UHGV virus genome: UHGV-0213571
Length of the DNA: 39,653 nucleotides
Strand: one strand, 5' to 3'
DNA from: a virus
In this document: positions 36,068 to 38,847 of the stretch, piece after piece
Numbering within the stretch: the stretch's first letter is position 1
Layout: each line of letters begins with the position of its first letter
Position numbers and translations under genes: made by a program
Notes under the pieces: generated by a model
What the model was told of the DNA's origin: nothing
Database searches by the model: none
What the model saw: only the letters and a program-made list of their open reading frames with translations

Positions 36068-36379
36068 TTAGGCGGCTGATGTTTCTTCTTTCAGGCTTTC
36101 GAGATATTTACGTGGGTCGTCGTAACATTGGCATTCGCTGTACCAATCCACCCAGCGATCAGTAAGCCCCATCTCTGATAAATCTTCATCGGTAAGGCTC
36201 TCATCCCACATTTCAAGGCCGTTAGCATTGCAGTAATCAGGCTTGATGTTGTTGTCATACTGAAAGGCGTCATAATCAGCCAGTGCGTCCATCAGGCGAA
36301 CACCCTCTTCAACACTTGCCACTTCTACAATGAACGGCTTCATAGGTACTTGCGGGATATGCCAGACACGTAATTTCAT
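36068..36379 (-). CDS. Hypothetical acidic small protein (early-left operon)
   Basis: 103 aa, strongly acidic, RBS CCTCC complement upstream; no recognised domain. Confidence 0.5.
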   Translation of the reverse strand: MKLRVWHIPQVPMKPFIVEVASVEEGVRLMDALADYDAFQYDNNIKPDYCNANGLEMWDESLTDEDLSEMGLTDRWVDWYSECQCYDDPRKYLESLKEETSAA

Positions 36380-36521: not shown

Positions 36522-36992
36522 CTAATAAAACACCCAGTTTTCTGTTTCTTGGTTGTGTCCAAAGTTATATTCAATATCTGGTGTTGATGTATCAATATTC
36601 TTCATCCCATCAACAAGAGTTGATACAACAGCCAAATCTTGTTTGATTCTCATTAAATGGTATTTCTTCCGGCGCAATAAACTTTCAATGGCAAGTTTCT
36701 TCGTTGGGAATGCAAAAGATCTTTCTGCATTTTTTGCTACTTTCTTAATTGCATATCTATTTCTCTTTTGTTTCCATTCCTGTAACCACTGATTTGGTGC
36801 TGGTTTAAAATTAACAATCCAATGCGCAGGAACCAACCATGCATAATGCTCTGTCTGATGAAAAGCTATATATTGAAGTGCGAATATTTTGATTCCATCT
36901 TCTTCAACTGTCGCCTGGAATCTCCAGAAAACAGGCATTCCATCATGTTCAGTTTCTGATTCAGGAAAAGGTACGCTCCATGATTTTGTCAT
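36522..36992 (-). CDS. Hypothetical protein, AT-rich moron between N and cIII
   Basis: 156-aa ORF, visibly lower GC than neighbours, followed by 9-bp-stem hairpin (36480-36507) and the terminator. Confidence 0.5.
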   Translation of the reverse strand: MTKSWSVPFPESETEHDGMPVFWRFQATVEEDGIKIFALQYIAFHQTEHYAWLVPAHWIVNFKPAPNQWLQEWKQKRNRYAIKKVAKNAERSFAFPTKKLAIESLLRRKKYHLMRIKQDLAVVSTLVDGMKNIDTSTPDIEYNFGHNQETENWVFY

Positions 36993-37000
36993 ATCTCACC

Positions 37001-37300
37001 TCAAATAAGTGGTTTGCTGCCTAATTTCATTTTCTGGCGACCAACACAAGTCACACCCATTTCACTGCGTGGCTTGCGGTAGTAAATACGGTTCTGTTTA
37101 CACTCGACTTCTTCTGCCTTCTTGCAGCGAAGGCTTCCGAGTGACGCTGCTTTGTCTGCTCTGACGCAACCAGAGAGCTTTAGCGCAATCTTTCGCGCCA
37201 GTCTCTGTTCTTTCATTGCCTGTTCACGTTGAGCCTGTCTTCGTGCTCTGCGGCGATTTCTGGCGTTATCGTCAGCCAGATATGTAATGACTACTGTCAT
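37001..37300 (-). CDS. N: Antitermination protein N (arginine-rich motif type)
   Basis: N-terminal arginine-rich motif (NARNRRRARRQAQREQ) directly downstream of nutL boxA/boxB; first gene of pL operon. Confidence 0.65.
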   Translation of the reverse strand: MTVVITYLADDNARNRRRARRQAQREQAMKEQRLARKIALKLSGCVRADKAASLGSLRCKKAEEVECKQNRIYYRKPRSEMGVTCVGRQKMKLGSKPLI

Positions 37301-37496: not shown

Positions 37497-37581
37497 AATA
37501 CTGTAGGTATTTTATTGTGTAAATACCCAAGGTATTTATTTTTGATGAAATAATGATAAACAAATGAATACAAAGGATATT
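37497..37581. promoter_or_regulatory. OL operator cluster with overlapping pL: three 15-bp sites of form AATAC-N5-GTATT (37497-37511, 37522-37536, 37567-37581, the last with ATATT half-site)
   Basis: Inverted-repeat half-sites seen directly; same motif recurs in OR. Confidence 0.55.
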
Positions 37582-37667
37582 TATTTTTTCGGTGTCTGCT
37601 TGTTCAGTGCTTTTTATGCGGGATATGTGAAGTGGATCCCGATAGCTATTGCTGCCGGGATTATGGG

Positions 37668-38057
37668 TTAGTCAGCGAAGGTTAAGACGAGAATTACCTT
37701 AATGATGTCTGCTACAACAGACACGGCCATAGATAAACCAAAGACGATCCAAGCCATAGAGATGTCTTCACTACCATCGTATAGAGTTCCGTAATCACTG
37801 GTGTAAGGCGTAAATGTCGCGCCTTGATACAATAGGTATAAGCTTGAACCATAGAGGATAAATGCAGATATCCCTTGTATTGCTATGATCACTAGAATCA
37901 TGAAACGAGCTGATCTATGCGCCCAAGCCTGGCTTATTTTTTCTGATAGAGATTTCGCAATAAAAGCATGCGCTAAGCCGTAAATTGTCGAGATTGCCAA
38001 CATCCCAAAAAAGCTTGCTATAGCGGTTCCAACCATAATCGCCCCTTGCGTGATCAA
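37668..38057 (-). CDS. Small polytopic membrane protein co-transcribed with cI (rex-position); candidate superinfection-exclusion / abortive-infection factor
   Basis: 129 aa with about 4 hydrophobic segments; ATGA start-stop overlap with cI. Confidence 0.55.
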   Translation of the reverse strand: MITQGAIMVGTAIASFFGMLAISTIYGLAHAFIAKSLSEKISQAWAHRSARFMILVIIAIQGISAFILYGSSLYLLYQGATFTPYTSDYGTLYDGSEDISMAWIVFGLSMAVSVVADIIKVILVLTFAD

Positions 38058-38770
38058 ACCAGCCTTAGTTTTGTCTCAATTGCAACGCCTATAATCTTGC
38101 AGTTTCCATTGATTGGCACGAGAGGCCATGCAGGATTAAGTCCCTTGAGGTATTTATTTCCGCCGTCGATTATCAGCTTCTTGAATGTTGCTTCGTTAGA
38201 GTCAGAAAGTTTTGCTATGACCAAGCTGCCGTTGATCGCCTCCCTTCCGGTATCGAAAAGAACGAATGTTCCCTCTGGAATGCTTAACCCAACCGGTGCC
38301 GTCATTGAATCACCTTCCACTTTAAGCCAAAACGCATTACCTTGAATATGCGCGTCAGACTCAAGCCAAACATCTATGTCTTTAATGGTGTATGGTTCGC
38401 ATGCTTCACACCACGAGCCAGCCTGGATACTGCTTAACACCGGATACCTCTTTCCTGCTCTGTATTCCCCTGCATACCTTACGTTGGCATCGCTCTTAAG
38501 GCTTTCTGCCTGTTCTGCAACCTTGGCAGCAATTGACTGGCTAAAATCAGCAATTGAGACTTGCAACAATCGTGCAAAACCAGATGCAACCTCAACGTTT
38601 AGCGCGTTTCTGCCATTAAGATAATGCCCTACCGCTCCTTGGGTGATACCCAGTTCATCAGCGATTGAGTATTGGGTTATTCCCAATTCTTTCTTTTTTG
38701 ACTCATACAAAGCCTTAAGCCGCTTAGCGTCTTCGAGCTGTTCTGTCGTCAGTGATTTTTTATTTTCCAT
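38054..38770 (-). CDS. cI: CI repressor (HTH + LexA-like S24 autopeptidase domain)
   Basis: 238 aa; N-terminus LTTEQLEDAKRLKALYESKKKELG and C-terminal FWLKVEGDSMTAP...TFKKLI closely parallel lambda CI; different recognition-helix region. Confidence 0.9.
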   Translation of the reverse strand: MENKKSLTTEQLEDAKRLKALYESKKKELGITQYSIADELGITQGAVGHYLNGRNALNVEVASGFARLLQVSIADFSQSIAAKVAEQAESLKSDANVRYAGEYRAGKRYPVLSSIQAGSWCEACEPYTIKDIDVWLESDAHIQGNAFWLKVEGDSMTAPVGLSIPEGTFVLFDTGREAINGSLVIAKLSDSNEATFKKLIIDGGNKYLKGLNPAWPLVPINGNCKIIGVAIETKLRLV

Positions 38771-38805
38771 AGCTTAATTCTAATAGCTAAGGTACTTAAA
38801 CTAAA

Positions 38806-38847
38806 AATACCCTGAGTATTGATTGCTTTGAATACCTGTAGTATTCT
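38806..38847. promoter_or_regulatory. OR operators (AATACCCTGAGTATT 38806-38820; AATACCTGTAGTATT 38831-38845) with candidate pR (-35 TTGATT 38819-38824, -10 TATTCT 38842-38847)
   Basis: Same AATAC-N5-GTATT motif as OL; located between divergent cI and cro. Confidence 0.55.

Follow-up and report, generated by a model that had tools for sequence, protein, structure and literature searches.

The DNA considered here is the virus genome UHGV-0213571, a stretch of 39,653 nucleotides (the window, read as one strand from 5' to 3'), which taken in full represents the mosaic genome of a P22-like phage. On its minus strand, directly behind the cI repressor gene and ahead of the left operators and the antiterminator gene N, lies the small gene hkaS, whose coding sequence (37668..38036, minus strand) specifies a protein of 122 amino acids, followed by a TAA stop, which is predicted to cross the inner membrane three times. 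The gene is genuine and subject to purifying selection, and the anatomy of the region gives good support to its being transcribed with cI, as the second cistron of two. An initial annotation, made from the nucleotide letters, had proposed a four-segment membrane protein coupled to cI and possibly acting in phage exclusion; it was confirmed in part, in that the gene is real and its place right, while the start codon, the overlap with cI and the number of transmembrane (TM) segments were wrong.

The cI-hkaS operon

The first cistron, cI (38054..38770, minus strand), encodes a repressor of 238 amino acids with HTH_3 and Peptidase_S24 domains, identified by Pfam, PHROG and the annotation of coliphage HK620. 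An open reading frame (ORF) of 129 codons follows it directly (38057-37668, minus strand), as originally described, but the 129-residue product assigned to it gives way to one of 122 residues starting at the ATG at 38036. On the minus strand, the junction of the two genes reads ...CTG GTT TGA TCA CGC AAG GGG CGA TT ATG GTT..., such that the stop codon of cI is overlapped not by ATGA, as had been proposed, but by TTGA (the TTG at 38057-38055 overlapping the TGA of cI). The ATG of hkaS is found 17 nucleotides past the cI stop, with a Shine-Dalgarno motif AAGGGG (38042..38047, minus strand) 5 nucleotides on its 5' side.

For comparison, five lineages of the gene were considered, namely that of the window, P0006 (assigned to Hafnia paralvei by NCBI; its sequence was taken here from L008-L010, which are metagenome contigs), P0010 (L003-L006, from Salmonella and Enterobacter), P0011 (L011), and P0012 (L007). 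Homologues at 83, 61, 55, and 52% identity all begin with M-[VI]-G at the corresponding ATG, which in the other lineages is placed 17-20 nucleotides past the cI stop and is preceded at 6-9 nucleotides by a Shine-Dalgarno-like motif (AAGGA, AAAGGA or CAGGGA). In the Salmonella lineage (L003-L005) an in-frame TAA stands immediately 5' of the ATG. The 122-residue form is also the one annotated in HK620, HK630, and RefSeq (WP_000233125), and positions 1-122 of the 122 in the profile PHROG 6534 align to residues 8-129 of the long ORF (E 3.6e-79). Because the profile, the starts of the homologues and the in-frame TAA all point to the ATG at 38036, the seven-codon extension opened by the TTG (38037..38057, minus strand) is not part of HkaS; it is not conserved, falls outside the PHROG profile and is most likely untranslated. 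Thus, a start at the cI stop, whether TTG or ATGA, was rejected. Translational coupling to cI in the form of an ATGA overlap falls with it, yet the short gap of 17 nucleotides still permits re-initiation.

The operators of the region conform to the consensus AATAC-N5-GTATT. Upstream of cI, OR1 (38831..38845) and OR2 (38806..38820) are perfect copies, the latter abutting the -35 element of a putative pRM, and OR3 (38782..38796; operator scan and HK620 annotation) is a weak site with two mismatches, which overlaps the pRM -10 element. The putative pRM itself (38777..38805, minus strand) is composed of a weak -35 element TTTAGT (38805-38800), which adjoins OR2, a spacer of 17 nucleotides, and a -10 element TAGAAT (38782-38777) that ends 6 nucleotides before the ATG of cI. 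A similar -10 element (TAGAAT or TACAAT) is kept 6-8 nucleotides before the cI ATG in L003, L007, and L009. This arrangement implies that the cI mRNA may be leaderless or nearly so, as in lambda, the promoter having been assigned by analogy.

On the far side of hkaS, OL1 (AATACTGTAGGTATT, 37497..37511), which is embedded in the pL promoter, and OL2 (AATACCCAAGGTATT, 37522..37536) are perfect consensus copies that carry the same designations in the HK620 annotation, whereas OL3 (AATACAAAGGATATT, 37567..37581) deviates by one mismatch and lies, in each lineage, at a distance of 45 bp from OL2. A consensus scan placed the pL-like promoter site at 37523-37495 (minus strand); it was the sole match of the region, with no promoter site detected between cI and hkaS. 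The first gene of the pL operon, N (37001..37300, minus strand), was recognized by PHROG 271 (E 3e-36) and by the HK620 annotation. In all other lineages the operator consensus and the 25/45-bp spacing are alike, with three sites 5' of cI and three more at 68-100 nucleotides 3' of hkaS, and the order OR, cI, a gap of 17-20 nucleotides, hkaS, hairpin, OL, and N is common to the five lineages (Salmonella, Hafnia, and metagenomic, at 50-83% identity). With cI on one side and the OL operators, pL and N on the other, hkaS occupies the place of rexAB in lambda, as had been recognized.

A GC-rich hairpin (AUCCCGGCAGCAAUAGCUAUCGGGAU, 37636..37661, minus strand), identified by folding, follows the hkaS stop after 7 nucleotides and has no U-tract. 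Hairpins at roughly 7-20 nucleotides past the stop were likewise found elsewhere (L003 6386-6415, L007 4387-4406, L009 1832-1859), such that one is present at that place in every lineage, with unrelated sequences and none with a clear U-tract. That the position has been kept in spite of this argues for a maintained function at the 3' end of the RNA or as a terminator, and the hairpin at 37636-37661 is a candidate for the 3' end, terminator or stabilizer of the cI-hkaS transcript. The tIMM of the HK620 authors is located slightly beyond the hairpin, where it covers the AT-rich palindrome of OL3. When carried over to the window, OL3 (37543-37559) and tIMM (37556-37586) of the HK620 record do not match the palindrome at 37567-37581; the OL3 of that record looks misplaced, judged from a palindrome kept 45 bp from OL2 in every lineage.

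Membership of hkaS in the cI operon, proposed from the outset, is borne out by a gap that holds a Shine-Dalgarno site, by the lack of an internal promoter, and by a hairpin that appears only after hkaS; expression from pRM in lysogens would follow from it. Co-transcription with cI is deduced from this anatomy and from the precedents of lambda and 434. For 434, the co-transcription of cI and hex has been demonstrated directly by reverse-transcription polymerase chain reaction (PMC3564112).

Several other elements in this region were considered and set aside. Two operator-like sites within hkaS (37826-37840 and 37867-37881), one of them with a perfect ATAC-N5-GTAT core (approximately 0.15 expected by chance in 369 bp, by estimate), are probably not cI sites, their core being absent from all homologues; the motifs coincide with the conserved YLLY and AIQGIS codons and can be rationalized as a by-product of coding. 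A hydrophobic ORF of 35 codons on the plus strand (37564-37671), which begins within OL3 and converges on the hkaS stop, was regarded as a candidate toxin-like peptide, but it contains stop codons in all four other lineages and was attributed to chance. The svsR-type small RNA described at a cI 3' end (PMC12803456) comes from another prophage and has no bearing on this region. Scans of the window for Rfam families and tRNA genes returned nothing.

Selection on hkaS and the architecture of its product

HkaS is exactly 122 amino acids long in all five lineages, down to 50% identity, without a single insertion or deletion. Between lineages the proportion of differing synonymous sites (pS) amounts to 0.66-0.88, i.e. 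these sites are saturated, and that of differing non-synonymous sites (pN) to 0.09-0.33, far below pS in every pair. In the sole unsaturated pair, the ratio of non-synonymous to synonymous substitution rates (dN/dS) was 0.137 for hkaS versus 0.030 for cI. The non-synonymous rate dN was 0.33-0.44 for hkaS versus 0.07-0.09 for cI, such that hkaS evolves 4-5 times faster than its neighbor. A foreign base composition, as expected for a moron-type insertion, was dismissed as an argument because the gap between hkaS (41.7% GC) and cI (45.3% GC) is too small.

One might consider that hkaS is a non-functional ORF kept only because it overlaps signals that the immunity region carries in its RNA or DNA. 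The product has no known domain, the hairpin and the operators are close by, and rare frameshifted alleles exist. Against this stand the low dN/dS (0.14), the exact length retained over saturated synonymous divergence, the conserved Shine-Dalgarno site and ATG, the confident structural model described below and the lack of conservation of the operator-like motif within the gene, and such an explanation is very improbable. The frameshifted alleles themselves (P0005, P0007, and P0009, from E. coli and metagenomes) are shifted through TM1, with the frame restored near residue 28-35, and gene callers pick an upstream TTG or ATG for them; they are probably inactivated copies in which TM1 has been destroyed.

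Three hydrophobic segments were found in HkaS, one fewer than the approximately four of the initial annotation, with Kyte-Doolittle peaks at residues 1-27, 43-70, and 92-122. The AlphaFold2 model, built on an alignment of seven sequences (predicted local distance difference test, pLDDT, 92.3; predicted template-modelling score, pTM, 0.79), agrees with them, featuring helices at residues 2-29, 31-38 (short and amphipathic), 41-73, and 89-121 as well as a small hairpin at 78-86. Structure prediction thus upholds a membrane protein, though one with three long helices, and a fourth TM segment was rejected in favor of three TM helices and one short amphipathic helix. Loop 1 (residues 28-44) carries a net charge of +3 to +5 and loop 2 (71-91) one of -1 to -4 in every lineage. 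Because these charges fit the positive-inside rule in all five lineages, the predicted topology has the N-terminus outside, the basic loop 1 of 17 residues inside, the acidic loop 2 of 21 residues with its hairpin outside, and the C-terminus inside.

Conservation is distributed unevenly over this framework. The C-terminal tail (residues 113-122, K-x-ILVLTFAD) is invariant at 9 of its 10 positions and the cytoplasmic loop (LSxKI[ST]QAWxHRxARF) at 9 of 17, to be compared with 4 of 21 both in TM3 (92-112) and in the periplasmic loop, which is among the least conserved regions of the protein. TM1 features a conserved glycine zipper (G3-x3-[AG]7-x3-G11), and the polar or charged residues Q54, S65, S106, D110, and K113 within the helices are invariant. 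A glycine zipper together with intramembrane polar residues occurs frequently in channel-forming small membrane proteins. In HkaS this combination suggests tight helix packing or oligomerization; a channel is not proven thereby.

Distribution of hkaS and the occupants of the cI-N slot

The gene is known from coliphage HK620 (record AF335538 of 2001, protein AAK28867), where its product is listed as 'unknown' and where a terminator named tIMM, OL3-OL1, pL, nutL, and N come after it. Over the 1.5-kb stretch from N to cI, the window is 99.1-99.4% identical to HK620, HK630, mEpX2, HZ41, HF4s, and the phages phi296 and phi367 of the Shiga toxin (Stx) type, and for HK140 and two Stx2c phages the value is 98.9%. 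The HkaS proteins of the window and of HK620 and HK630 share 97.5-99% identity, with the position and the 122-residue frame alike. The gene in the window is therefore hkaS of HK620, with no difference of substance, and not a new discovery, having been annotated since 2001; all annotations found label it 'unknown' or 'hypothetical protein'.

The exact protein of the window occurs on at least 1000 contigs. Among 5426 complete E. coli genomes, hkaS was present in 146 (2.7%), always on the chromosome and always beside a repressor of the LexA family, and the carriers came from gut and animal sources. When HkaS was compared by tblastn with 50,697 phage records, only the 16 HkaS-bearing records matched; conversely, all 16 phage records with a cI at least 99% identical carry hkaS. 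Among these carriers are podoviruses (HK620), a Lambdavirus (HK630), and Stx phages; since they span several virion types, it is the immunity module, rather than the type of virion, with which hkaS travels. The prophage of E. coli NT1F10 from a pig farm (L016, NZ_CP075462 1857786-1858286) illustrates how the immunity module moves between mosaic backbones: it is 100% identical to the window over 37560-38060, i.e. hkaS, its 3' flank and the final 7 nucleotides of cI, in a setting where the early-left and replication genes differ and the gene for a DnaB-type helicase is interrupted.

Larger collections did not extend the family. A word-indexed search of 5.8 billion sequences produced 12 clusters, all of the HkaS family, and in 1.84 billion representatives a full HMMER profile search retrieved 2 matches, a full-length member and a fragment of 44 residues, both again HkaS. 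Remote homology beyond this family was rejected, as there was none in Pfam, PHROGs, NCBIfam, PADLOC, or the sequence and profile searches. Judged by these comparisons, HkaS constitutes an orphan family that occurs only in the cI slot of lambdoid prophages in enterobacteria.

Small size and three-TM topology call to mind the immunity proteins against pore-forming colicins of the E1 type, which have approximately 113 residues and three TM segments. In this context one might suppose that HkaS serves a lysogenic conversion that has nothing to do with phages, for instance as an immunity protein against a pore-forming colicin, a microcin or a contact-dependent effector, or as a factor for tolerance of envelope stress. 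Its likely expression in lysogens and its presence in a small share of E. coli from gut and animals would accord with that. However, neither Pfam nor NCBIfam gave a match to colicin or microcin immunity proteins, no toxin gene is linked, and the confinement of the family to the lambdoid cI slot argues in the same direction, which leaves such a conversion improbable.

The interval between cI and N is a mosaic hotspot whose occupants, rexAB and bstA (PMC8585504) as well as stk and hex (PMC3564112), are mostly genes for exclusion or abortive infection, in line with what had been said of the slot at the beginning. Behind the next relative of the cI found here, that of Cronobacter phage ENT39118 (65% identity), other ORFs are located; the cI of phage 434 (52% identity) is followed by hex and that of lambda (43%) by rexAB. 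A further lysogen-expressed gene of the slot behind cI is nun.

With RexB, HkaS would share the slot between cI and OL/N, co-transcription with cI, and the nature of a small polytopic inner-membrane protein. The two differ in that RexB has 144 residues, versus the 122 residues and three TM segments of HkaS, in that they have no relation in sequence, and in that a partner comparable to RexA is missing, hkaS being the only gene between cI and OL. RexB has four TM helices; it excludes T4 rII and, when activated, depolarizes the membrane.

The closest resemblance in kind is to SieA of P22, a small stand-alone prophage protein of the inner membrane that blocks DNA injection, and whose types A-C have three predicted TM segments, with the best conserved segment on the cytoplasmic side (PMC10883804). 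On the other hand, the motif FxRYPxEAxxFNK of SieA is absent from HkaS, SieA is longer (162-164 versus 122 residues), and sieA is placed between genes 16 and 9 with a promoter of its own, whereas hkaS belongs to the immunity region.

Hex of 434 is likewise the product of a second pRM cistron directly behind the related cI. It differs from HkaS in that hex overlaps the cI stop as ATGA, and in that the protein, in place of three TM segments, has a single hydrophobic stretch, signal-like and N-terminal, ahead of a hydrophilic body. The Hex sequence (L014 2109-2513, lambda imm434, OM418626; 134 residues) starts with MIRIAALLSILLTTSANSEC, which resembles a signal peptide and is followed by the hydrophilic body. 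This suggests that Hex may be exported, which would be odd beside its published cytoplasmic role in shielding cI from RecA (PMC3564112).

BstA of BTP1 and Stk of 933W, finally, are accessory products of the cI-N interval that are expressed in lysogens and exclude other phages (PMC8585504, PMC3564112). Unlike HkaS, they are soluble abortive-infection proteins that lack a membrane topology of its kind, and HkaS has no match to them in Pfam or PADLOC. BstA acts at phage replication sites and Stk is a tyrosine kinase, both being larger than HkaS.

Two neighbors on the far side of N may be mentioned. Directly 3' of N, an ORF of 156 codons (36522-36992, minus strand; PHROG 1636) has a GC content of 36%, compared with 47.5% for the window, and is a moron-like candidate. 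A protein of 103 residues (36068-36379, minus strand) falls into PHROG 1510, which carries the label 'superinfection exclusion', and is probably similar to P22 gene 17, going by the GP17 Pfam match of a 103-residue gene at the matching place in L003. With a PHROG 1510 protein, the early-left operon already holds an exclusion-related gene.

A proposed exclusion at the inner membrane and other possible roles

The initial interpretation was supported in part: the operon holds, and a role in exclusion is plausible from the position of the gene and the type of protein. That HkaS is a lysogen-expressed exclusion protein of any kind appears, in our estimation, about evenly balanced. More specifically, we tentatively favor an explanation in which hkaS, as the second cistron of the immunity operon in HK620-type lambdoid and P22-like phages, provides exclusion at the membrane. 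In lysogens the gene would share the pRM transcript of cI, with pRE supplying both genes during establishment, and its own Shine-Dalgarno site would drive translation; HkaS would insert into the inner membrane, oligomerize via the glycine zipper of TM1, and exclude heterologous phages at the cytoplasmic membrane. Incoming phage DNA would be hindered in crossing the inner membrane, similar to what P22 SieA, T4 Imm, and HK97 gp15 achieve, and the host would not be killed.

A block at the stage of entry is favored within this scheme because stand-alone prophage proteins that consist of TM segments and have a known function are mostly entry blockers, with SieA the closest analogue; taken by itself, the proposal that HkaS hinders the entry of phage DNA is possible but doubtful. 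An accessory character can be deduced from the faster evolution compared with cI, the variable periplasmic loop, the mobility with the immunity module and the other cargo behind the next cI.

A number of observations weigh against exclusion at the membrane. At E<=1 the Pfam scan returned only TssN (E 0.044; 13.6 bits versus a cut-off of 30.3, i.e. noise), at E<=10 neither NCBIfam nor the defence models of PADLOC-DB 2.0 (0 families) gave a match, and fold searches with HkaS retrieved generic helical bundles only. Direct HHalign comparisons resulted in probabilities of 0.7% for lambda RexB, 0.3% for P22 SieA, and 0.1% for 434 Hex. No mention of hkaS, its accessions or its PHROG number was found in the literature. 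Furthermore, sieA and gene 15 of HK97 are genetically linked to the virion or ejection genes that they target, whereas hkaS travels with cI across virion types; any target must therefore be heterologous. Strict co-inheritance with one type of cI over saturating divergence could reflect a function tied to the lysogenic switch instead of exclusion. Finally, the surfaces that are best conserved, the C-terminal tail and loop 1, face the cytoplasm, as would also be expected if HkaS had a partner there, for instance cI or a protease of the host.

Pfam includes models for SieB, T4 Imm, GtrA, class I holins, and colicin immunity proteins. HkaS matched none of these families in the Pfam and NCBIfam scans, and the initial statement that it resembles neither RexB nor SieB is corroborated by the HHalign value for RexB and by the absence of SieB from the Pfam results.

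The same position would also suit a stand-alone abortive-infection effector. Oligomers of HkaS would in this case stay closed until superinfection opens them, through perturbation of the membrane or a trigger protein, upon which the membrane potential collapses and the infection is aborted, in the manner of a RexB without its RexA sensor. The shared rexAB slot, the glycine zipper of TM1 and the polar or charged TM residues are compatible with such a channel, and the occupants of the slot elsewhere, bstA and stk, are abortive-infection genes (PMC8585504, PMC3564112). Yet OL comes next after hkaS, leaving no gene for a partner or sensor, the similarity to RexB is negligible, with three TM segments in place of four, and PADLOC gave no match. 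Abortive-infection proteins that stand alone and consist of TM segments are, moreover, rare compared with entry blockers of that build. An effector of this type therefore seems rather unlikely.

The strict linkage to cI and the conserved cytoplasmic face lead to another explanation, according to which HkaS modulates the lysogenic switch, stabilizing lysogeny or tuning induction or establishment in a role like that of 434 Hex or like the switch biasing reported for RexA/RexB of lambda. Its cytoplasmic face would act on cI, on the RecA-dependent cleavage of the repressor, or on a membrane protease such as FtsH/HflKC, which controls CII. In favor of this, hkaS is never apart from one type of cI, neither in the 16 phage records nor in lineages down to 50% identity; the sequence and spacing of the operators are conserved, conservation within the protein is highest in the basic loop on the cytoplasmic side and in the C-terminal tail, and expression from pRE would coincide with establishment. 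Precedents exist as well: Hex lowers spontaneous induction 30-fold and reduces RecA-dependent induction (PMC3564112), and RexA/RexB are reported to aid the lysogenic-to-lytic transition (bioRxiv 10.1101/2021.04.19.439022). Conversely, only approximately 27 cytoplasmic residues of HkaS lie outside the membrane, Hex is unrelated and not multi-pass, and tight linkage is to be expected anyway for a gene 17 nucleotides from cI within an immunity module. An evolution 4-5 times faster than that of cI would be unexpected in a partner of the repressor, and we regard a modulator of the switch as unlikely.

Two less conventional variants were given a low probability. HkaS, kept with one cI specificity over very long divergence, could be the membrane part of the immunity circuit and might connect the state of the envelope, or of FtsH/HflKC, to maintenance of the repressor or to induction, or it could be a single-gene abortive-infection pore that operates without a sensor. 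If true, either would be a mechanism new to the lambdoid cI operon.

The gene hkaS is ordinary in kind, a reasonable and cheap experimental target rather than a surprise. It is an uncharacterized occupant of a lysogen-expressed slot, present in lysogens of Stx phages and in the tractable phages HK620, HK630, and mEpX2. Should HkaS tune the switch, the membrane would be linked to the control of the repressor. If HkaS excludes phages, the exclusion proteins would gain an orphan family with three membrane passes, new in sequence yet of a familiar kind, with a bearing on phage therapy and on the competition between prophages.

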